NCBI GenBank assembly: GCA_965219455.1
Contig: OZ244744.1
Coordinates: forward strand, 800,001-864,000
Direction of reading: 5' to 3'
Length of the DNA: 64,000 nucleotides
Source: Candidatus Latescibacterota bacterium
Lineage (GTDB): Bacteria > Latescibacterota > UBA2968 > GCA-2709665
Shown here: positions 35,927 through 46,862 of the stretch, one piece after another
Position numbering within the stretch: the stretch's first letter is position 1
Layout of the letters: each line of letters opens with the position of its first letter
Notes under the pieces: model-generated
Databases searched by the model: none
The model's input: the letters and a program-made list of their open reading frames with translations, nothing else
Told to the model about the DNA's origin: nothing
Translations under genes and position numbers: made by a program

Positions 35927-36056
35927 CGTGTGAACCTCCTGAATTGTGGTTGCATTGCGTTCCCGGGATTGCAATGCAGATGCGTCGGATCTGTCCGTTC
36001 CTTCCCGTGTGAGGCCACTTCTTCACCGGTAACCATACGCACTTGCAATCCCATTC

Positions 36057-36530
36057 CTATTGGATTGCCGGATCGTAACCCTCCAGCGCCTTCTCCGCAA
36101 ATGTCTTCGTACGTCCGTCCCATTCGAACCCGGCCGCGCCCCGTACAGCGGCGTCCACCACGGAGACCACGAGATACACCACATCCGGAAAGGCCGGCTC
36201 GTCCATGAACATGGCGGCCTGGCGATCTTCCTCGGAAAAATACGCGCCGCAGTCGATGTGCGAATGATAAAACGCCACCACGCGGCCGCCCGCGCTTTCT
36301 GTCTCCGCAAAAATCCGGTGAACTTCCAGGTCGTCCATCCGGTAAGCGTTTTTCGAGGTGCGGGGGTGTTCCTCCGGGTTTCGGGCATGCAACCGGTCCT
36401 GTATATTCCCGCACCGATACACCTGATAGTCGCCGTCCGTCCCCGCCGCCACAATCCCACAGCACTCGGCCGGATAATCCTTGCGTGCATGTTCGTAAAT
36501 CTGTTTCCAGACCGCCCGATCCAAGTCCAC
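36057..36530 (-). CDS. JAMM/MPN metallopeptidase (Mec-like)
   Basis: YPAECCG, YHSH...FSEED JAMM motif. Confidence 0.92.
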   Translation of the reverse strand: MDLDRAVWKQIYEHARKDYPAECCGIVAAGTDGDYQVYRCGNIQDRLHARNPEEHPRTSKNAYRMDDLEVHRIFAETESAGGRVVAFYHSHIDCGAYFSEEDRQAAMFMDEPAFPDVVYLVVSVVDAAVRGAAGFEWDGRTKTFAEKALEGYDPAIQ

Positions 36531-36536
36531 CCTCCT

Positions 36537-37484
36537 TCAAACCGGCTCGTCCAGACGCCACAACGGGGTGCTCATATATTTCTCGCCACTGTCCGGAAAA
36601 AGGGTAACCACAATCCCGTCGCCCGCCTCCTCGGCCACGCGCAACGCCCCCGCGAAGGCCGCACCGCACGACTGTCCGGCAGGAATGCCTAGCTCGCGCG
36701 TCAACCGCCTCGCGGCCGCGTAGGCATCTTCGGTCTCCACGCGGATCTTCTGATCCCACACCGAAGGGTCGTAAATGCCCGGCACGATGGATACGTCCAT
36801 ATTCTTCAGGCCTTCGATTCCGTGAAACTCGTGCGGTTCCACGGCCACTATCCGGACGTCGGGGTTGTACTCCTTCAACCGCCTGCCGGTGCCGATCAAC
36901 GTGCCGCTGGTGCCGAGGGTCGCCACGAAATGGGTCACGCGCCCCCGCGTCTGCCGCCAGATCTCCGGCGCCGTCTGCAGATAGTGCGCCCTGGGATTCG
37001 AAGGGTTATTGTACTGATCCGGTTTGTAATAACGCTCCGGATTGGCCGCCAATATCTCCCTGCACTTCAGAATGGCGCCATCGGAGCCCTCCAGCGGATC
37101 GCTCATAACAAGGCTCGCCCCGTAGGCCTGAATCACGTGCCTGCGTTCCACGCTCACGCTGCCCGGCATCACCAGTTCCACCCGATACCCCAACGACGCG
37201 CCGATCATCGCGTACGCGATTCCCGTATTGCCGGACGTCGAATCGATGATCACCCTATCGGGAGTCAACTCTCCTGATGAGATGGCATCCTGGATCATCT
37301 GCAGCGCCGGCCGGTCCTTCACCGATCCGCCCGGGTTGAACATCTCCATTTTCGCAAAAATCTCAACGCCATCCAGGTGATCCGCAAACTTCCGGATGCG
37401 CAAAAGCGGCGTCTTGCCGATGGCGTCGACAATTGTCGGCTGAATTCGGGAACCGATGTCCGTACTCCCAACCTGATGCCCCAC
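36537..37484 (-). CDS. Cysteine synthase B / CysM-like PLP enzyme
   Basis: NPGGSVKDR, DSTSGNTG, DQYNNPSN, LGTSGT, PDSGEKY. The start is approximate. Confidence 0.88.
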   Translation of the reverse strand: MGHQVGSTDIGSRIQPTIVDAIGKTPLLRIRKFADHLDGVEIFAKMEMFNPGGSVKDRPALQMIQDAISSGELTPDRVIIDSTSGNTGIAYAMIGASLGYRVELVMPGSVSVERRHVIQAYGASLVMSDPLEGSDGAILKCREILAANPERYYKPDQYNNPSNPRAHYLQTAPEIWRQTRGRVTHFVATLGTSGTLIGTGRRLKEYNPDVRIVAVEPHEFHGIEGLKNMDVSIVPGIYDPSVWDQKIRVETEDAYAAARRLTRELGIPAGQSCGAAFAGALRVAEEAGDGIVVTLFPDSGEKYMSTPLWRLDEPV

Positions 37485-37510
37485 AAGCAACCTCTTCCCG
37501 GTCGTGCGGG

Positions 37511-37617
37511 TGGAATACACCCCGATCACCTATAAAAATGGCCCCGTGTTGCCCGGGACCAAGCAGCAAAAACAATATATGCAGACGACCGGCTTTGTCA
37601 AGCGCAAACGGCGGAAG
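37511..37617. repeat. Direct repeat copy C (island left boundary) containing a minus-strand promoter
   Basis: Near-identical to 43764-43871. TTGACA (37601-37596) and TATATT (37579-37574) on the minus strand. Confidence 0.9.
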
Positions 37618-37702
37618 TCGGCAAAGCCAGCGATCAGCGTACTGCGGTTGTCGATACGGCCAAGCGATCTCCATTTGCCGACGACCGCACCCATGCTGCA
37701 TT

Positions 37703-38070
37703 TGCGGGGGCGGTTCGCGAACCTCCCTCGGGGAGGAAGGGAAAGGCCTGCGCTATCTCGGTCTGCCCGTCCTGCAGGTGCCCATTCCGGGGGGAAGAAG
37801 GGGCCTTTCCGCGCTCGTTCGTTCAGTAGAGCTGTCCAGAAATGCCTACATAGCCCGCAGGGCAGAGTCTCACGAACTATCTACAGCGGTAATTCGCGAA
37901 AAGGCTACCCGCTGCGTCTGGGCAGTGCGCTCCTTTGCGCTTTTTCATGGCGAGAAAGAAAAAGGGCGTAAATTAAAAATCGAAAAAATCCAAATTCACA
38001 TTCTCTCCCCAAATTCCCTGCCTCCGGCGGGTTCCTTTTGACGCGACCAAAAGGAACCAAAAGTCGCCGC
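37703..38070. repeat. Cluster of REP-like palindromes
   Basis: gggggcggttcgcgaacctccc, cgctttttc...gaaaaagggcg, ggttccttttg...caaaaggaacc. Confidence 0.5.
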
Positions 38071-38551
38071 TAGGCGCGGGGCCTGCCATATGCATAGCGC
38101 GAATCTCGCTGGGGGCTCCACATGATCGGTTGCCCTGCGAGCGAAAGTGGAAAACGGTGCTCAGTGCCGGACGGAACTACGCGCTCTGCTCTGGTTGACC
38201 TCATGATGGGCATCGCTGCCGACGTTCTATTGGCTTCCTGCTGGCGAGAGTACGGAAATGGCTCACACGAAAACACAAAGAGAAAAACAACAGTCAGCGG
38301 CGAGTGGTCAGTGGTCGCCCGCCCGGTTGTGTTGGGGGTTTGTTCGCCGCAGAAATCGCGCCGCTCACCATCAGCCTCGAACGGCAACACCAGGCGTCCC
38401 CTGTTGTCCCGTATAAACACCGGAACAACATGCCACCCGCTGCGAGGTCGGAGGTTGGTTCTCCGCGCTTTAACGTCCAGCACCACGATTCAGGAACGGC
38501 TGGAGGGGACGAAGGGCACCAAAGCGTGTCGACACTGTTGTGACGTTTCGC

Positions 38552-38650
38552 GGAAGAGCGGCCAAGCCGCGCGATCGGTTCCTGTCGCTCGACGAGTTGA
38601 AGCGCCTCGGCTTCATCCTCACCCATGCAGAGGGCAAACCCAACTACGCG
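38552..38650 (+). pseudogene. Tyrosine recombinase (phage integrase) remnant
   Basis: An unlisted frame reads KPRDRFLSLDELKRLGFILTHAE, matching the R(E/D)RFLSxxELxRLG motif that precedes the catalytic domain of phage-type integrases. Confidence 0.5.
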
Positions 38651-39684
38651 ATCAACTTCAACATATCACGATGGATGTTGCGCCAGTTCTGAGCAAGATC
38701 AATGCTCCGGGCACGGATCGAGTAACCCTCCAGGCAGACATCGACCTTCACCGACGCGTCGACTGTCGGGTAGAGCAGGATTCCTTCGTGTCTCGGCCCG
38801 GGCGCCCTGGTTGCTTCGCGATTTCTTAGATAGGCCAGGAGTTGGTAAAGATTGTCAGAATGTAGCTTCCCGCCGTAGCGGCCGCCAAACGCCTCTCGGT
38901 AGTATTTCGCGTCCATGATGATTCGCCGATCCGGCGCTTCCAGTATGACGTCGGCTTCCATTTTCGGAAGTTTCAAGCGATGGTGATCGGGCGTGCCTTC
39001 GTCGGCCCAAGCGATGGCGCGCCCGCGATGGTTGACCCGATAACGGTCTTGCTCACGCTTATAGAACTCGATTATGAAGTCCTCGTACAGTTTTTCCATT
39101 CGATCTTCGCTGAAGTCGGTGAAACTCGCCTCCCCGGATCTTTCGTTCACCACAAGTTGTTCATGGATGAGTCTGCAGACCGACAACAGGAATCGATAGT
39201 ACCGGCGGTTGCGGTCGAGTTGTACCTGTCGGAACAGCCGGCGGTTCAACCGCACCACGCTCACGTGGTTCAGCTTGGTGTATGCATTACGGACATTGGC
39301 GTACACGTCGGAATCCAGGTTCGGGAGTCGCAGGAGGGATCCGAGCGTGGAGCGGAGGATGCAGTTGTGCAGGACATCGTGGGACAGTTCCTCAAAGTCG
39401 CAAACGACCCGTCCGCGGGCGCATAGCGCCCGTTTAACCGTCTCCCCCACAGCGATCTTTCCTCGGATACCGCCCAAATCTTCACGCACCTCCCGATACC
39501 CTCGGTCAATACCTCTGCGGATTAGACGGAACGTCCCTTCCGCAAGCACCTTGCCCAATAGTTCATGAACTCTCTCCAGCCCTTCCAGCTCCTCCTGCCG
39601 TACGACATCTCGTTCATCGACATGCCTCCAAGCGTAGCACAGGAGGTAATAGATGTTGGCGATGGGGATTCTCTTGTCGTTCAC
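38644..39684 (-). CDS. mcrC: McrC restriction endonuclease subunit
   Basis: IPIANIYYLLCYAW, IRGKI, LYEDFI, D...IIMDAKYY, NLYQLLAYL, GILLYP. Confidence 0.92.
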   Translation of the reverse strand: MNDKRIPIANIYYLLCYAWRHVDERDVVRQEELEGLERVHELLGKVLAEGTFRLIRRGIDRGYREVREDLGGIRGKIAVGETVKRALCARGRVVCDFEELSHDVLHNCILRSTLGSLLRLPNLDSDVYANVRNAYTKLNHVSVVRLNRRLFRQVQLDRNRRYYRFLLSVCRLIHEQLVVNERSGEASFTDFSEDRMEKLYEDFIIEFYKREQDRYRVNHRGRAIAWADEGTPDHHRLKLPKMEADVILEAPDRRIIMDAKYYREAFGGRYGGKLHSDNLYQLLAYLRNREATRAPGPRHEGILLYPTVDASVKVDVCLEGYSIRARSIDLAQNWRNIHRDMLKLIA

Positions 39685-41069
39685 TGCTGCAATTTCTCCA
39701 CCAGTTTATCCACCTGTTTAGGACGGTCGAACCAGTACTCTCGCAACAGGGGCTCAACCTGTGTATCGACGATGCCAAGGTACCAATCGTCGTCCGCCGA
39801 CTCCTCTGGCACAAAGTAGCTGTGTCCGATCTGGAAATCGGGTCCGAGATCCTTGTCGTCGCGTATATGCTGGTTGAGCTCGGACAGGTTTCTGTCAATG
39901 CGGTCGACCAGAACTCGGTCGACGTCCGCTTCAAGCAGGTATTCGCGGAACTTCCCAGTGCCATATGCGGGCTGAAGCGTTTCGAATGCGAATCGGCGCC
40001 GTAGAGCATAGTCGACGATTGCCAGCGATCGATCGGCTGTATTCATGAGACCCAAAAGATGTACGTTTTCAGGGACGCTAAAGCGCTCCCCTGACGGACT
40101 GTACGTTAGCGCAATGGCGTGTTCGGGGCCACGCTTGTCCGCTTCGATGAGCATGAGCAACTCGCCGAATATCTTGGACAGATTGCCCCGGTTGATCTCA
40201 TCGATAATGAAGACGAAAGGCTTATCTAGATTTTGCTCCGCGCGCTTGCAGAACTCGAAGAACACGCCATTCCGTAACTTGAAGCCACCGGTCTCCGTCG
40301 GCCGCCAACCCTGAAAAAAGTCCTCATAAGCATAGGACTGATGAAACTGCACCATCTCGATAAACTGTGAGTCCTTGCGCCTTATCAGGCACCATGCGAT
40401 CCGTCGCGCGATGAATGTCTTGCCGACGCCCGGCGGTCCCTGAAGAATCAGATTCTTGCGAAGTGCGATTGAGTCGAGAATCCGGCGGAACTGAGGTTCT
40501 TCCAGGAACAGGTCAATTAGTGCCGTGTCAACATCATACGATTTGCCTTCCGTGTCATCGGGCTCAACTTCCGACTCGCCTGCATCGGCGTCGATTTTTT
40601 CGAATATATGTCGTAACCAGTCTCGATATTCCGTGAATCGAGTCAATGTCTTGGTCGTGATCAGGCCCGTGAAGTTGATCGGCGCACGGCACGGATGCCA
40701 CTCTACAGTCCTGACGTTTTTGTACTCTGCCCTTTCCGGCACGTAGGTGTATTCTCCGGTAACCTTTCCCCAGCCTAGAATGGCGCGGCGGCCTTTCTTC
40801 GCGATGAGGATGTCATCGATCTTAATCTCCTGCACGAATTCCCACGCCGCAAGTGACTGGTTGGAGGGGTTTTTTCCTCTGCCGTTCTCGATCAACGCGC
40901 TGTGGATATCCACCCTGGATTCATAATCGCTAAGGTTCCCGAGGTGGTCCCAACCAATTGCCGTGATACCAAGTTCGAGAAACTCTTCCCAAAAACGTGC
41001 GCCCCTGCCAGGCGCGATAGTCCAAACGTCGGCCGTGCCGAAACGGTCGCGGTACCATGCCGTTGACAT
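39681..41069 (-). CDS. mcrB: McrB AAA+ GTPase with N-terminal modified-DNA-binding domain
   Basis: GPPGVGKT, QFHQSYAYEDF, IIDEINRGN, MNTADRS, ALRRRF, IGHSYF. Confidence 0.93.
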   Translation of the reverse strand: MSTAWYRDRFGTADVWTIAPGRGARFWEEFLELGITAIGWDHLGNLSDYESRVDIHSALIENGRGKNPSNQSLAAWEFVQEIKIDDILIAKKGRRAILGWGKVTGEYTYVPERAEYKNVRTVEWHPCRAPINFTGLITTKTLTRFTEYRDWLRHIFEKIDADAGESEVEPDDTEGKSYDVDTALIDLFLEEPQFRRILDSIALRKNLILQGPPGVGKTFIARRIAWCLIRRKDSQFIEMVQFHQSYAYEDFFQGWRPTETGGFKLRNGVFFEFCKRAEQNLDKPFVFIIDEINRGNLSKIFGELLMLIEADKRGPEHAIALTYSPSGERFSVPENVHLLGLMNTADRSLAIVDYALRRRFAFETLQPAYGTGKFREYLLEADVDRVLVDRIDRNLSELNQHIRDDKDLGPDFQIGHSYFVPEESADDDWYLGIVDTQVEPLLREYWFDRPKQVDKLVEKLQQ

Positions 41070-41118
41070 TCCTATCAATCCTCTATTTGCATTCGACGAG
41101 GGCTCGTGGATTCCGAAC

Positions 41119-42030
41119 TTATATGCCCGCGAACCAATCCGACCGGATGCGTACCTTCTCAATCATCTCGGTTTCGACGCCAAGGTTATTTTCTTTGAGC
41201 AAATCACAAAGGCGATCCCCGTCGATCAAGTCAATGGCAATCGCACCGTCACGGGTGGCTTCGTCTGACGCCTGACTGGTGAAATGGCCCGTCGTGATAA
41301 ACAAGCCTTTGTCGGCGCGTCCCTGCAATGCCCCACGAAAATCCCTGATTTCCTTCGAACCAACGCTCCCTTTCCAGCGCTTACACTGGAAAAAGATCTG
41401 GAATGACACAAGGTTTACGCGTAGTACGCCGACACCATCGATTCCCCCATCACTGGATTTTCCACGCACTTCGACTTTGGTAAACCCTGCTTCACGTAAT
41501 AGACGCTGTGACAACCGCTCAAAACCTTCTGGCGGCATATCACCCAACACGGCCAAGAGCATCGACTTCCAGTCCTCAACTTCCTCGATGCTTTCACCGA
41601 TCGAGTCACCGTCTTCTGTCTTTAAGGCTTAATCGGCCAATCGCTTGATGCGTCGCCGTTCACGTTCTTCTTGGGAGACGTGTTCATGAATCGCATCGGT
41701 CTGAGCACGCGTTGTGATCACCGAACTGCTTTCTGTTAGGGCCCATATTCCACGCGAAGAATTCACCAGTGCATTGCCGCGTTTGAGGTAGGTACGTGCC
41801 CAAGCGAGGTAGTAGTTTACCCGCGGAAGATTTGGGTTCTGCGTCATAGTGAATGATTGCTCGGCCTCGGTCACCCCTTCCAGTTCGATCACTTTTTCAT
41901 CCAGTTCCTGAATGGTGGCCGAACCGCCCAAATCCCTAAGGGCCTCGACCGTGACCAACATCATTCCGGGCAGATCGGGTAGGTGTTCCGCGTCGATTTC
42001 AAAACGCCTTTTCATCGTTCTGTTAGTCAT
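41119..42030 (-). pseudogene. mrr: Mrr type IV restriction endonuclease interrupted by an in-frame TAA
   Basis: Mrr_N (LRDLGGSAT...WARTYLK...GIWALT) and Mrr_cat (DGGIDG, QCKRW, IRDFRGAL, LIDG) lie in the same frame, separated by TAA at 41631-41629. Confidence 0.85.
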
Positions 42031-42186
42031 TGGTGTCCCCACAAAAGACATTATTGAATGGTCCAAATAGCAAGTCGTGTTAAGCGGCAGCGATCCGTCG
42101 ACCGCTGCCGGTGAAGGCGTGTTCGGGAACATCCGACGAATCTATTCGACGAACCGGCGCGGGTGTTCGTAATTCAACTGCGGGCA

Positions 42187-42273
42187 CTCGCGGCCCGCCT
42201 CGAAGTCCGCCCTGCGATGCTCCCAGGTCTCTTGCAGGTTGAGCCAGAGCTGAGGCGTTATCCCAAAAAAACG
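42187..42273 (-). pseudogene. HigA antitoxin C-terminal fragment
   Basis: RFFGITPQLWLNLQETWEHRRADFEAGRE versus RYFGTTPQLWLNLQTTWELRRAEIEAGRE in the HigA at 42960-43265. Confidence 0.75.
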
Positions 42274-42292
42274 CACCGCCGCAAGTCCGGGT

Positions 42293-42607
42293 TCACGCGA
42301 ATCTCAGATCCGCCTGGCGCTTAGCGTCGCCACGTACCCGGCGGGCTTGCGCAAGCTCATAACTCGCCTGCATCCGCATCCAGTGATCGGCGGTACCCCA
42401 GCCGATATCCTCCAGCGCGAGCGCCATGTTCGCGGACACCCCCGTCCTGCCGTTCAACAAGCGCGATAGCGTGCCGCGCTCGCAGCCGAGGCGCGCCGCC
42501 GTCTGCGTGACGTTCGAGCCAACCTCTTCCATGCCCTCTCGGATCAGTTCGCCCAGGTGCGGAGGGTTCAACATGGGGCCGACACGATTGCTTTCAATGT
42601 CGTTCAT
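42293..42607 (-). CDS. HigA-family antitoxin
   Basis: NPPHLGELIRE, LSRLLNG, MALAL, WMRMQASYEL. Confidence 0.88.
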   Translation of the reverse strand: MNDIESNRVGPMLNPPHLGELIREGMEEVGSNVTQTAARLGCERGTLSRLLNGRTGVSANMALALEDIGWGTADHWMRMQASYELAQARRVRGDAKRQADLRFA

Positions 42608-42626
42608 GGTCAACACTCCCGTCCGG

Positions 42627-42740
42627 TCAGTGATAATCGATCAGGTCCACGTCCACGACCTCGCCGTCCTCAAAACGGAACACCACACGCCAGTTGCCGG
42701 TGACGCTAACGCTCCACTCGGCCGCAAGCGTCCGCTTTGC
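42627..42740 (-). pseudogene. HigB toxin, 5'-truncated
   Basis: Only the C-terminal WSVSVTGNWRVVFRFEDGEVVDVDLIDYH is recognisable. The upstream sequence is unrelated. Confidence 0.75.
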
Positions 42741-42894
42741 CATCACGACCGCCGACCGCATTGCGCAGCGGCAACTTGTGTGCGGGCTCGCACGGATCGG
42801 CGTAAACATTCGTTTCAGAGGCACAACGATCGGATCAGCGGAGCATTTGAAAAGCCCGGAGACGAAATTCGGACGCCCTTCGACGGTTGGTTCT

Positions 42895-42927
42895 CACACC
42901 CCGATCACGTACAAAAATGGCCCCGTG
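42895..42927. repeat. 33-bp core repeat copy B
   Basis: cacaccccgatcacgtacaaaaatggccccgtg, identical to 43769-43801 and 30/33 to 37516-37548. Confidence 0.9.
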
Positions 42928-42959
42928 CAGTCAGTGGCAGGCAATTGGCCATCACATTC

Positions 42960-43265
42960 CTACTGCACCGCTTGACGGGGCGTTACGCTTGCAGCGATCT
43001 CGCGGCCAGCCTCGATCTCCGCCCTGCGAAGCTCCCATGTCGTTTGCAGGTTGAGCCAAAGCTGAGGCGTCGTCCCAAAGTAGCGCGCCAGCCTCAACGC
43101 CGAGTCTGCGCTCACCCCACGTCGGCCGTTCAGAATCATCGTGATGCGATTCACCGACACTCCCAGTGCCTTCGCCAGGGCGTTGGCCGACAGCCCGAGC
43201 GCGTCGAGTTCGTCGCGGAGTATCTCACCCGGATGAACCGGTCTCATCCCATTCTTCGCGTTCAT
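42960..43265 (-). CDS. higA: HigA antitoxin
   Basis: MRPVHPGEILRDEL, ALRLARYFGTTPQLWLNLQ. Confidence 0.93.
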   Translation of the reverse strand: MNAKNGMRPVHPGEILRDELDALGLSANALAKALGVSVNRITMILNGRRGVSADSALRLARYFGTTPQLWLNLQTTWELRRAEIEAGREIAASVTPRQAVQ

Positions 43266-43276
43266 GTTCGCGCCTC

Positions 43277-43555
43277 TCAGTGGTAGTCCTCGATCTCCAC
43301 GTCGCACGCCCCATCGTCCGTCCAGCGGAAACAGATGCGCCATTGCTCGTTGATCCGGATGCTGTGTTGGCCGGCCCGGTCCCCACGCAACGCTTCGAGC
43401 CGATTGCTCGGCAATGCGGCGAGATCCCCAAGTGTCTCCGCGTTGGCCAGAAGGGTCAGTCGGCGGGCGGCCTGATTCGAGAAACCGTGAAACGCCGGGA
43501 CCCGCTTACCCTCGAAGAAACGTCTTGTATCCCGATCCTTGAAGCTCCGTATCAT
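43277..43555 (-). CDS. higB: HigB (RelE-family) toxin
   Basis: MIRSFKD, PSNRLEALRGDRAGQHSIRINEQWRICF, VEIEDYH. Confidence 0.93.
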   Translation of the reverse strand: MIRSFKDRDTRRFFEGKRVPAFHGFSNQAARRLTLLANAETLGDLAALPSNRLEALRGDRAGQHSIRINEQWRICFRWTDDGACDVEIEDYH

Positions 43556-43563
43556 GGGCGACG

Positions 43564-43592
43564 AATGTAACCTCTGTTACGGCTCCCTTCAA
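43564..43592 (-). promoter_or_regulatory. higBA promoter with palindromic operator
   Basis: TTGAAG-17-TACATT on the minus strand, overlapping GTAAC-N4-GTTAC (43567-43580). Confidence 0.6.
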
Positions 43593-43763
43593 TGCATCTC
43601 ACCGTCTTGCAAAAGGCGTTGATTCCGCCAGTGTCGCCGCCGACCCATGTGGACTGGTACGACGATGCTGCGCTGCTCTCGTTAATTTCGGTATGGCATG
43701 TACGGAAAACATTCGAACATCATTTGAGCAATACGGAAACGCGATTCAAAACCCGTCGGCGTT

Positions 43764-43871
43764 TGGAACACACCCCGATCACGTACAAAAATGGCCCCGT
43801 GTTGCCCGGGACCAAGCAGCAGGAAACAATATATGCTGACGACCGGCGTTGTCAAGCGCAAACGGCGGAAG
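43764..43871. repeat. Direct repeat copy A (island right boundary) containing a minus-strand promoter
   Basis: Near-identical to 37511-37617, followed by short tandem gcagcgaaa/cagcgat units. Confidence 0.9.
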
Positions 43872-43984
43872 CAGCGAAAGCAGCGAAAGCAGCGATCAGC
43901 GATCAGCGGTCAGTCTTCAGCCGTCAGCTAAAACCTGTTTACGTAATAGTCCGTGACGTCTATCGGCGATGTCCGCGCCAGCAA

Positions 43985-44095
43985 GCGGGCAACCACAAGG
44001 GTTGCCCCTACAAAAGCGATGTTGGCGCTCCAAGGGCTGGAAGCCCTCGGTCGTGGGGACCTCTCCCCCCGGCCCTCTCCCGAGGGAGAGAGGGA
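43985..44095. repeat. REP-like palindromes
   Basis: gggcaaccacaagggttgcccctac (GTAG-type REP on the minus strand) and ccctctcccgagggagagaggg. Confidence 0.6.
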
Positions 44096-44383
44096 GACAG
44101 CGGGCAGGTCTATACGGAAACAAACGCAGTACGGAATGGCCTGCGGCTCCACGGGATTTGCTACAGCCCACAAACTGCCAGGTTGTGGTACGACCGGGCT
44201 ATTCTGGTCGGAGGTGTCAATTTCACTATCCATTGACTGACTGGATTGGCGATTTGTACGTCCAACCCCGGTACCCATTTCCATTCAACACACCGTCCGT
44301 ACAAAAATCATCGACGGAAGCCGATAGCACTTCCGCCGATACAGATTCGGTCTGATTCGGGACGACTGCCATTTCGGCCCCGA

Positions 44384-45139
44384 CTATCCCGCCGCGAGTT
44401 GACCCTCCGCTTCCGGTATTTCGACGTCCATCAACGGTACGTGCATACCGCATTCCGATTTGGACGTTCCCGCCCAGCGGCCCGCGCGTTCGTCGGCGCC
44501 GGGCGCTGCCGGCCGGGTGCAGGGCCAACAGCCGATGCTTGAATAGCCCTGGTCCATGAGCGAATTGTACGGCAGATCCTTTTCAATGATGTAATCCCAC
44601 ACCTGCTTCCGCGTCCAGGCGGCAAGCGGATTTATCTTGGCGACGTCCCGGCCGCCGCTGGTTCGGTAACCTTCCACGACACGTACGCCGGCCCGCGTTC
44701 CTGACTGATCTCTCCTGAGGCTGGCAATCCATCCGTTAAGACTTGCCAATTTCCGCTGCAGAGGCTCCACCTTGCGCATGCGGCAACAATGATCGGGATC
44801 ACGGTTGTACAGGTCGGGGCCGCAGACGCTATCCTGCTCGGGTACGCTCAAGCGGGGGCGTAAGGACTCGATCTCAATATCGTACCGCGCCTCAATACGC
44901 GTTTTGAGCGCAAGCGTTTCAGAAAACAGATACCCGGTGTCGATTGTAAAAACAGGAAGTTGCGGGACCACCCTTTGCGCCATATCCAAGAGAACCACGC
45001 CGCTGGCCCCGAAAGCCGTACTCATTGCCACCGCGGGACCGAGGTTTCGCCAGGCCCACTCCAGGATTTCCTCGGGCGGCGCCGCCTCCAATGCATCGGC
45101 CAACCGGCCAATCTTCTGCTGGTCGAAATCCATACACAT
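44384..45139 (-). CDS. cysH: APS/PAPS reductase (4Fe-4S APS-reductase type)
   Basis: IDTGYLF, CCRMRKVEPL, KINPLAAW, SIGCWPCT, ERAGRW, ECGMH. Confidence 0.93.
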   Translation of the reverse strand: MCMDFDQQKIGRLADALEAAPPEEILEWAWRNLGPAVAMSTAFGASGVVLLDMAQRVVPQLPVFTIDTGYLFSETLALKTRIEARYDIEIESLRPRLSVPEQDSVCGPDLYNRDPDHCCRMRKVEPLQRKLASLNGWIASLRRDQSGTRAGVRVVEGYRTSGGRDVAKINPLAAWTRKQVWDYIIEKDLPYNSLMDQGYSSIGCWPCTRPAAPGADERAGRWAGTSKSECGMHVPLMDVEIPEAEGQLAAG

Positions 45140-45162
45140 CCTCTGTCGGCTTTAATTACTGT

Positions 45163-45211
45163 ATTGTTAATCAAGTTAGTCAACAATAATAAATTCATTT
45201 CTTGCTGTCAA
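45163..45211 (-). promoter_or_regulatory. cysH promoter with Rrf2/IscR-type operator
   Basis: TTGACA-17-TATTGT. The 25-bp ATTGTTGACTA-ACT-TGATTAACAAT overlaps the -10. Confidence 0.6.
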
Positions 45212-45386
45212 GTCTTAAATGCAAAATTCCGATTATCCGGAAAGTCCGATAACCGGCCGGGGATAGTCGAGACTCGCACCGACGGAGTTTGAAATCACCT
45301 TGACTTTTAAGATGGGTTTTGATAACTTTCAGGCCTCAAAATTGTTGGCGTTTCGCGTCATCGTGGAACCGTCCGATCCAGGAAAC

Positions 45387-45421
45387 AAAAAAGCCCGATC
45401 TGTTGAGATCCGGGCCGTTTT
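45387..45421 (-). terminator. Terminator downstream of tRNA-Lys
   Basis: aaaaaagcccgatc...gatccgggc hairpin with an A/T run. Confidence 0.6.
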
Positions 45422-45454
45422 ATAATACAACTAATTTATTTTGAGAAAGTTAAA

Positions 45455-45526
45455 TGAGCCCGGAAGGATTTGAACCTTCGACCAACGGCTTAAAAGGCCG
45501 CTGCTCTACCCCTGAGCTACGGGCCC
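45455..45526 (-). tRNA. tRNA-Lys (anticodon TTT), CCA not encoded
   Basis: GGGCCCGTAGCTCAGGGGTAGAGCAGCGGCCTTTTAAGCCGTTGGTCGAAGGTTCAAATCCTTCCGGGCTCA cloverleaf. Confidence 0.96.
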
Positions 45527-45626
45527 ATTCCGTTCCCAGATCAAACTACAAAAACCGATGCACGATCGGGCAAAGTGATGAATATAGACAAGCCGTTCTC
45601 CCCTGTCAAGGAAAAGGGTTTCCGTA

Positions 45627-46862
45627 ATGATGCGCAGGCGAAGCAAGCGCCGCATGCTGAAGTGGGTACTTTGGATCACGGGAGTACTGGCGGTTATTTT
45701 TCTTGCCCTGTCGCTTATCGAGATAGACGACGTCGTCATGGCCCAGGGCATCGTAGAACCCGGTGAAAAAATCTATATCGATTCTCCGCTCAAGCGCGTT
45801 ATCGAAAGCATCCATTGTGAACCTGGAACGCCGGTGAAAGCCGGACAGCCGGTTGTCCAACTCTATAATGGCGACCTGGTCGCCTCGGTTGAAGCGGCCG
45901 AGAAGGAGATCCAGCGCAACGAAGCGAACCTGGAACATGCCAGGGCAAACCTGGCGCTGCTGAAAGAAAAACCGACCGCGGAAGCGTTGAAGATCGCGGA
46001 ATCCAGGGTCGAACATGCACGCATTGCGCTGAAAGCCCGCAAGCAGGAAATGAAGCGGGCCGAACACCTCTATCTGGGCGAGCGCCTCTGGAGCGTCGAG
46101 GAACTCGAACGCGCAAAAACGAACTGCGAACTCGCGGAAACCAACCTGAAGGTGGTTTCCGAGGTCCTGAACCTGACCCGGCGCGGCGCATCGCCTGCGG
46201 AACTTCGGCAGGGCGCGGCCGACGTTCGCCGCGCAGCGGCAGCGCTGGACAACGCCCGAAACAGTCTGAAGGCGGCGCAGGAAGGCCTGGAACTGACCAC
46301 CCTCCGGTCGCCCGTCAACGGCATTGTTGTCAGACGGGATCTGCATCCCGGCATGCTTGCCGACCAGGGGCAAATCGTACTCATTGTTGCGGGAGAGGGC
46401 GGAGGAGATACGATCGACGCCTGGGTCCCGGAAACCAACGCGTGGAAAATCCGTCTGGGACACCCCGTAGAAATCCTCAGCAATCTATTTTCCGACCGCG
46501 AGGAATTCGCCGGTAACGGCAAAATCTCCAGGATATACGGATATGCGGTACACGGCAGCGGCGTCCGAACCTTTGAGTTGGAAATTGGCATTGTGGAAAC
46601 CCCGTTGCCGCTCAAATACGGCTCTACCGCAGACCTGCGCATTATTGTGGGCAGGCGCAGCATTCTCAAATTCCTCCTGAATATCGAAGATCGCGACGTG
46701 GTCCAGGCCAGCCGGCAGGACGTCCGTAATCAGAGTGAAAGGGACAAGATTCAACCGTCGCCTTCCCGTCAGACCTTCTCCGACTCCATCACGACGACAC
46801 CCTCCCGGAACACCACGTCGGCCGATTCCGGAAGCGGCACGGCAGTGGCGCGGAAGCCCTAA
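45627..46862 (+). CDS. HlyD-family membrane fusion/secretion protein
   Basis: N-terminal TM, AQGIVEP, VKAGQP lipoyl half, long coiled coil, LRSPVNGIV. Confidence 0.88.
   Translation: MMRRRSKRRMLKWVLWITGVLAVIFLALSLIEIDDVVMAQGIVEPGEKIYIDSPLKRVIESIHCEPGTPVKAGQPVVQLYNGDLVASVEAAEKEIQRNEANLEHARANLALLKEKPTAEALKIAESRVEHARIALKARKQEMKRAEHLYLGERLWSVEELERAKTNCELAETNLKVVSEVLNLTRRGASPAELRQGAADVRRAAAALDNARNSLKAAQEGLELTTLRSPVNGIVVRRDLHPGMLADQGQIVLIVAGEGGGDTIDAWVPETNAWKIRLGHPVEILSNLFSDREEFAGNGKISRIYGYAVHGSGVRTFELEIGIVETPLPLKYGSTADLRIIVGRRSILKFLLNIEDRDVVQASRQDVRNQSERDKIQPSPSRQTFSDSITTTPSRNTTSADSGSGTAVARKP

Follow-up and report, generated by a model that had tools for sequence, protein, structure and literature searches.

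Tandem accretion of mobile elements at one attachment (att) site is known from arrays of integrative and conjugative elements and cis-mobilizable elements (ICE/CIME arrays)—as in the ICESt1-related elements—and from islands stacked at tRNA or ssrA genes. Integrons feature the IntI integrase, a promoter and attI site beside intI, and co-oriented cassettes that each end in attC, an imperfect inverted repeat forming a hairpin. The Xer-dependent dif/pdif modules (IMEX, Acinetobacter) are small, often toxin–antitoxin (TA) pairs, lack a recombinase of their own, and are bounded by short sites. Defence hotspots flanked by core genes, some without detectable mobility genes, form a further class, with Escherichia coli hotspot #37 (PMC10121019) and the core defence hotspots of Pseudomonas aeruginosa (PMC10250203) as examples. 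The locus compared here lies in a stretch of 64,000 nucleotides (the window; positions 800,001 to 864,000 of contig OZ244744.1) of a Candidatus Latescibacterota bacterium (assembly GCA_965219455.1). It consists of a ~6-kb block of McrBC-type restriction, mrr, and higBA-type TA genes that parts cysM from cysH and is bounded by two long copies of the cysM promoter/5′ leader, with a third, partial copy inside.

The locus is an ordinary variable hotspot island and not a new integron-like system; what is unusual is its target—a promoter/leader and not a tRNA 3′ end—and its host, an uncultured lineage. The favored reading, which has about an even chance of being right, is that the block is a decayed, immobile composite islet in the cysM leader, formed by two-step accretion and then reshuffled by homologous recombination. 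As in tandem accretion, the array has target-derived direct repeats on both sides, an internal third copy parts two sub-elements—one of which occurs alone in a congener (G014)—and unoccupied single-copy sites exist in relatives; one sub-element lacks an integrase, and the other carries at its edge only a ~25-codon integrase relic, with no intact gene at the locus in the 15 genomes compared. Unlike in those arrays, the target is a promoter/5′ leader instead of the 3′ end of a tRNA, tmRNA, or protein gene, and the repeat carries a whole promoter. The spot resembles the E. coli and P. aeruginosa hotspots in its fixed position between core genes, in being empty in some genomes, and in its variable, defence-rich cargo, often with no detectable mobility genes. 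It differs from them in lying inside a promoter/leader, in having its cargo bounded by leader copies, and in being sampled from 15 species-level genomes and not from a population. Like chromosomal integrons that hold TA cassettes, it has a terminal promoter and cargo genes in one orientation, among them a higBA-type TA pair; unlike them, it features no IntI, no attC, a single repeat-bounded module, and modules of several genes. A small TA module without a recombinase between short bounding sites also recalls the pdif modules; unlike in those, no 11-6-11 XerC/XerD site is seen by eye in the core, and the copies are direct and not inverted pairs.

The array is delimited by three copies of one sequence:

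37506..37648, minus strand: left leader copy (repL), with core at 37516-37548, hairpin at 37539-37561, and promoter-like site at 37574-37601
42895..42927, minus strand: internal core copy, spanning the leader hairpin's 3′ half, the T-run, and the following 18 nt
43759..43910, minus strand: right leader copy (repR), with core at 43769-43801, hairpin at 43792-43814, and promoter-like site at 43828-43855

The long copies repL and repR are 84% identical across 151 nt as judged by a similarity search of the own genome. A repeat search of the window gave 92% identity between 37506-37568 and 43759-43821 and 90% between 37570-37627 and 43824-43881, and placed the internal partial copy, the third of the set, at 42885-42947. 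The 33-mer at 42895-42927 matches that at 43769-43801 with 0 mismatches and differs from that at 37516-37548 at three positions, the number of 33-mer matches expected by chance being 0 (100 shuffles). Left of the core, ~25 nt of diverged leader are common to all three copies in a three-way alignment; in the internal copy, this extension is 42871-42894. Direct repeats around a ~6-kb block between cysH and cysM, and a higBA pair bracketed by two identical 33-mers, had both been claimed in an initial annotation made from the sequence alone, and both are borne out. In the own genome (5.84 Mb, single contig), only three places match (E 6e-74, 5e-42, and 8e-7), the remaining 17 of the 20 matches listed being 15-29 nt long with E ≥ 0.4; the repeat is therefore not a dispersed multi-copy element, a possibility that the initial annotation had raised against its own model. 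The distal end of the right repeat (43866-43905) is a tandem array of three CAGCGAAAG units followed by two of CAGCGAT, which the left copy lacks.

Both long copies carry on the minus strand a TTGACA-16-TATATT site (11/12, a consensus match only), in agreement with the promoter that had been placed inside the repeats. After 13 nt comes a hairpin (8-bp stem, 7-nt loop) and then a T-run, and the 33-bp core consists of the 3′ arm of this hairpin, the T-run, and the next 18 nt. As read from the copies in congeners, the repeat is nearly invariant across the genus from CACGTACAAAAATGG to GTCAAGCGCAAACGG. Its single-copy state in empty congeners, together with the adjacency of cysH and cysM (100-170 nt apart) in 5/5 loci of other genera in the family or order, identifies the repeat as the cysM promoter/leader native to this genus, with a predicted sigma-70-like promoter, and the empty cysH–cysM state as ancestral. 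A core pattern scan of 185,579 species genomes gave 18 stretches, 15 from the 14 congeners and three chance occurrences with unrelated flanks, and a scan of metagenome contigs gave four, namely one true empty site (L080) and three short chance matches. By these scans, the core is confined to this genus, and neither of them found a core with an integrase beside it. In an Rfam scan of 36000-46000, tRNA-Lys alone passed, and the repeat had no match. Genus-wide, the region upstream of cysM combines a near-consensus promoter with a terminator-like hairpin and T-run ~13 nt further on (37530-37601; 43783-43855)—an arrangement that could be a promoter-proximal attenuator or a sulfur-regulation operator. 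Two variants of the leader stem were seen, neither with a compensatory change. The tail after the cysH terminator (ATTTTTGTAC; within 44300-44341) is the same 10-mer as the core T-run (43782-43792).

The cysM-to-cysH region of 14 congeneric genomes was compared with that of the window, giving 15 species-level genomes; segments of the window were mapped onto the congeners, and every leader copy was inspected with its flanks. The congeners feature the following states:

G007, G008, and G010: empty, with one repeat directly between cysM and cysH
G014: core, higA-1, higB-1, and full repeat
G002, G005, and G006: higA2, higA-1, and repeat, with higB-1 intact in G005 only
G003: mcrC fragment, higA2 fragment, higBA-1, and repeat
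G004: mcrC, a 632-aa McrB with N-terminal Mrr_N, higA2, intact higB2, 0.8 kb, higA-1, higB-1 relic, and repeat
G001: higA2, core, partial higA-1, and repeat
G009: higA2, intact higB2, type II restriction endonuclease and methyltransferase, GajB-like UvrD helicase, HEC-05/GmrSD-like protein, and repeat
G013: as the window, plus a duplicated 312-bp 5′ cysM piece ahead of the internal core
G011 and G012: repeat adjoining cysM, with 4.8 kb and 2.8 kb, respectively, of other DNA on the cysH side

The empty single-copy site between cysH and cysM that the accretion model called for is thus present in 3/14 congeners and on the metagenome contig L080, and the variable cargo that it likewise called for lies between cysM and the cysH-side repeat in 9/14, differing among genomes. 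This cargo is defence-rich: McrBC, Mrr, an HEC-05/GmrSD-like protein, a type II methyltransferase with its restriction endonuclease, a GajB-like helicase, and two HigBA types. With its conserved flanks and variable, defence-rich cargo, the spot belongs to the defence hotspots flanked by core genes. HigA-1 is full-length in 9/9 congeners that have it, and HigB-1 is intact in three of these. The higBA-1 pair was found at this locus only in the 13 congeners searched, apart from one 75% paralog elsewhere in G005, which is without the core. In G014, it stands alone, in the order cysM-leader-core|higA-1-higB-1-repeat-cysH. In this genome, the downstream core bears an end of host type (ACGCCCCG), which the empty G010 also has, and the upstream core bears one of element type (ACACCCCG), which also marks the cores linked to higBA-1 in the window and in G005; one- or two-base variants of the element-type end occur in G003, G004, and G006. 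The core|higA-1 junction is identical in the window, G013, G014, and G001.

Further features of the congener loci concern their cargo and the cysH side. G006, G002, and G004 (L036, L037, and L041) have in common a deletion of most of higB-1 between two GGAAAC microhomologies (compared with window 43323-43745), which leaves higA-1 as an orphan antitoxin. The G009 cargo (L039:10025-17144) comprises the HEC-05/GmrSD-like protein (E 1e-188) and the GajB-like UvrD helicase, with no GajA seen there, as well as a D12 methyltransferase on the opposite strand and a helix-turn-helix protein; a DUF7690/DUF7687 protein of this genome matches a type II restriction enzyme model. Large open reading frames (ORFs) of 551-723 aa stand between repeat and cysH in G011 (L029:14891-16546), G012 (L034:16502-18532), G013 (L030:8712-10883), and G009 (L039:7044-9080), which makes the cysH-side spacer a second variable spot. 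They match no Pfam or PADLOC family, and two have a weak dockerin/EF-hand-like C-terminus.

The left edge of the cargo in the window holds the trace of an integrase, preceded by two families of dispersed repeats:

37986..38216, no strand assigned: dispersed non-coding repeat family 1, about 30 longer copies listed in the own genome
38314..38484, no strand assigned: dispersed non-coding repeat family 2, about 12 copies in the own genome
38564..38638, plus strand: tyrosine integrase relic of ~25 codons, detected by phmmer matches and cut off at the 3′ end of mcrC

The relic is enclosed by the left repeat on one side and the cargo on the other. A 37-residue query run exhaustively with phmmer against a library of 1.8 billion matched seven proteins (E 4e-5 to 9e-4), three of which carry the integrase N-terminal domains Phage_int_SAM_3, Phage_int_M, or Arm-DNA-bind_3. 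One matched protein (P0006), itself without a relative in the PDB, is identical to the relic at 21/28 positions. In the five matched sequences inspected, the matched segment sits directly before LLLFTGARSSE, which we take to be the first conserved block of tyrosine recombinases. Pfam at E ≤ 10, a plasmid tblastn, and a search for paralogs in the own genome, all on 38474-38689, returned nothing; a 72-aa query in 61 genomes returned the G013 ortholog only, plus dispersed-repeat matches to its first 33 aa, and tblastn for further pieces of such an integrase gene in 36500-45500 found none. The integrase remnant of the initial annotation is, on these matches, real but only a trace of ~25 codons. 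In none of the 15 genomes did the locus show an intact integrase, transposase, or integron integrase, and since no intact integrase survives there anywhere in the genus, excision cannot be assumed. Copies of the dispersed repeats are 75-90% identical in the own genome, and contig depth over them is very high in all four public runs. The segment 37650-38643 was considered as native to the lineage of leader allele type A, given a resemblance to G011 beside its repeat; this was rejected, the resemblance being that of the dispersed repeats. A palindromic REP-like unit (GGGCAACCACAAGGGTTGCCCC type; window 43985-44060) recurs in the cysH-side spacers of several congeners.

The leader copies occur as two alleles. 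The left copy is of type A, as in G011 and G013, and the right copy is of type B, as in G004, G005, G007, and G010. Since their alleles differ, the two copies were brought together and not duplicated in place. The right copy of G013 is chimeric, its allele type switching at the hairpin. At the internal core, homology breaks within the 7-nt loop between the two 8-bp inverted arms, and a loop between inverted arms of this size may correspond to the layout of a tyrosine-recombinase core site.

On the favored reading of two-step accretion, a small higBA-1 element that itself carried the distal half of the leader would have recombined at or beside the hairpin loop. The result would have been a core on either side of higBA-1, an arrangement that persists by itself in G014. 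A second element, with a tyrosine integrase and its own promoter/leader copy of ~150-190 bp, would then have recombined at the same sequence, which would have produced the full-length left copy and put a promoter again ahead of cysM. Later, the integrase would have been destroyed, dispersed repeats would have invaded, and mrr and higB2 would have eroded, while deletions and homologous recombination between species would have reshuffled the pieces. As predicted from its genes, the islet may now supply only McrBC-type restriction and a HigBA pair. The initial annotation had proposed sequential addition at a non-tRNA leader site in integron-like logic. The addition itself holds up as a reasonable history, because the repeat is not dispersed, empty sites exist, cargo varies, higBA-1 occurs alone in G014, and an integrase relic is present; the integron-like logic does not.

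A serious though doubtful alternative is a hotspot shaped purely by homologous recombination, with no site-specific enzyme ever acting. Cargo would have come in through illegitimate recombination aided by homology, or through single crossovers of the Campbell type, with cysM, cysH, and an ultra-conserved ~45-nt block of the leader as anchors; the leader copies would be by-products of joining two diverged haplotypes, and the relic would be unrelated debris. The following observations point this way or weigh against two-step accretion. The nearly invariant ~45-nt block is also the best substrate for homologous crossovers between diverged genomes, and allele switches at this block need no site-specific enzyme; each long copy of the window is of one allele type throughout. 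The best-matching congener changes along the locus from left to right—G011 for cysM, G013 for 37500-42700, G003 for higBA-1, G004/G006/G014 for the right repeat, G011 for cysH, and G013 for the upstream gene—and patches 96-100% identical to G013 adjoin stretches of 84-90%, which marks homologous exchange as active. The locus is heavily reshuffled by homologous recombination, which alone could yield much of the pattern. The length of the duplicated segment varies from ~33-57 bp in G014 and ~150-190 bp in the window to >450 bp in G013. The last genome has a 356-bp duplication that takes in 312 bp of cysM coding sequence, a result that a single homologous crossover of a circle would predict. Six congeners with cargo have a common left junction and no left leader copy, and in G004, higBA-1 adjoins the intact higBA-2 with no core between them. 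No recombinase gene stands at the locus in the 15 genomes: by Pfam, the window cargo holds no intact integrase, recombinase, or transposase domain, and none of these domains occurs in 57 cargo ORFs (of 105 listed; flanking genes excluded) from the six congener loci with unfamiliar cargo. The integrase family of the relic is absent from the 15 genus genomes at E ≤ 1e-8, no counterpart of a left-arm binding site is visible at the internal core, and the relic need not have come with the present cargo, since it has only ~25 codons and abuts mcrC via a secondary joint. A precedent is E. coli hotspot #37, which is reported to be without detectable mobile elements in 68% of cases (PMC10121019). Three features argue against a purely homologous origin: the relic lies exactly where the integrase of an island is expected, the clean higBA-1 insertion of G014 duplicates a segment that is short for RecA-dependent integration, and homology breaks off right at the loop of an inverted repeat.

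It is unlikely that the locus is an active cassette-capture platform, an analogue of attI/Pc at which a recombinase encoded elsewhere inserts modules behind the cysM promoter, the newest being nearest to it. All cargo genes of the window are indeed on the minus strand and co-oriented with the promoter, as the initial annotation had stated, the allele switches fall at the hairpin, and of the TA genes, only the pair closest to the right-hand promoter is fully intact; contigs of a near-identical strain in one public run (X1) cover the higBA-1 unit 42895-43798 with two differences in 904 nt. Set against this is the lack of integron machinery. The best match to the integron integrase TIGR02249 in the own genome reaches 88.9 bits against a cut-off of 265, with none within the window; tyrosine recombinase genes of this genome turned up near 2.417 Mb and 4.000 Mb. 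A promoter-like site and co-oriented cargo are present with no intI. Folding of the internal core plus the higA-1 tail gave no attC-like structure, the result being no better than for shuffles (z +0.97), and no Xer/dif-like or attC-like motif was seen in the core on inspection by eye. The core brackets one module only, higBA-1; repeat and similarity searches found neither core nor repeat at the boundaries of mcrBC, mrr, or higBA-2. The confinement of higBA-1 to this locus in 13 congeners, the lack of a core at the G005 paralog, and the opposite strand of one G009 cargo gene are further points against such a platform. The order read by the initial annotation, with an intact module nearest the promoter, eroded ones next, and then intact mcrBC, is the one found; because mcrBC is farthest from the right-hand promoter yet intact, there is no decay gradient. 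An integron-like system is therefore not supported by the sequence data, all the more as the duplicated length varies and six congeners lack the left copy. There is similarly little chance that the leader hairpin loop is a live attachment site where a host-encoded recombinase, supplied in trans, adds modules that lack a promoter or regulate themselves, newest first; if it were, this uncultured lineage would possess a capture platform of integron-like kind that needs neither IntI nor attC and loads its modules directly downstream of a strong housekeeping promoter.

That the duplication is an assembly artefact from a mis-join at the repeat is very improbable. The public data consist of assembled contigs of four runs, which break inside the shared block; no listed contig spans a repeat into both unique flanks, and the long-range order therefore rests on the assembly itself. 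No evidence in support of a mis-join was found, and against it stand the divergence of the long copies, which differ by 8-16% and hence are not collapsible duplicates, the presence of the same repL/dispersed-repeat/mcrC joints and core|higA-1 joint in G013, a separate complete genome, and contigs from runs of three further studies that match every unique segment with 0-1 differences. Joints listed in the public runs were disregarded, their sides being 18-27 nt long and most of them lying within dispersed repeats. In run X1, mcrBC-mrr is almost uncovered, which is no evidence of its absence, and cysM, higBA-1, and cysH are covered. The higA2 region 42320-42610 has a contig depth of 1200-1660 in all four runs, yet is single-copy in its own genome; close homologs are presumably abundant in those communities.

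Gene calls in the window were made by Pfam and NCBIfam profile searches, and all genes from the cysM-like synthase to cysH lie on the minus strand:

36537..37474, minus strand: cysM-like cysteine synthase, cysKM family (Pfam PALP; TIGR01136 348 against a cut-off of 344)
38644..39684, minus strand: mcrC, intact (PF10117; NF007277 324.5 bits)
39681..41162, minus strand: mcrB, intact, 493 aa, AAA_5 GTPase-type subunit (PF07728)
41119..42132, minus strand: mrr pseudogene, Mrr_N and Mrr_cat sharing a reading frame that one stop at 41629-41631 (codon 168) interrupts
42142..42276, minus strand: HigA-1-like C-terminal fragment, 44 aa (85% to 42999-43089; 59% over 44 aa)
42293..42616, minus strand: higA2, intact orphan HigA-family antitoxin (TIGR02607 67 against a cut-off of 47.7; orthologs in congeners)
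42627..42729, minus strand: higB2 relic, of which only the last ~34 codons match the HigB family model
42960..43265, minus strand: higA-1, intact (TIGR02607 96.7 against a cut-off of 47.7; orthologs in congeners)
43277..43555, minus strand: higB-1, intact (PF05015, E 6e-14)
44384..45139, minus strand: cysH, PAPS/APS reductase (Pfam, NCBIfam), with a terminator-like hairpin at 44309-44341

The gene content read by the initial annotation—truncated higB, higA fragment, nonsense mrr, intact mcrBC, and intact higBA—is confirmed. The likely start of cysM is the GTG at 37474, preceded by GAAGAGG, as judged by an alignment of congeners. McrB and McrC match NF008457 and NF007277, both under the equivalog cut-offs, and have the predicted layout of a type IV restriction pair, with an AAA_5 McrB adjoining the McrC nuclease subunit. 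The higBA-1 genes likewise have the layout predicted for HigBA, with the HigB-like toxin gene upstream of the HigA helix-turn-helix antitoxin gene. Upstream of the higB2 relic, 42730-42870 matches no relative in the mapping onto congeners. In the region that corresponds to 41068-41563 of the window, the congeners G013 and G004 carry Mrr_N fused in frame to McrB in intact ORFs of 650 aa (L030:13757-15709) and 632 aa (L041:2091-3989), without the ~500-bp Mrr_cat segment that stands between Mrr_N and mcrB in the window. Either a deletion may have given McrB a new N-terminal DNA-binding domain, or the Mrr_cat piece may have entered the lineage of the window.

For the reading of such loci, the islet carries a caution: cargo bracketed by repeats and co-orientation alone are no sign of an integron-like system. 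An ultra-conserved regulatory block can act as an att site or as a homology anchor, and because it can serve as either, the two origins are hard to distinguish. The locus documents a defence/TA hotspot in a little-studied, uncultured lineage, and it would show clearly how an island that settles in a promoter/leader can supply the displaced gene with a promoter copy of its own.

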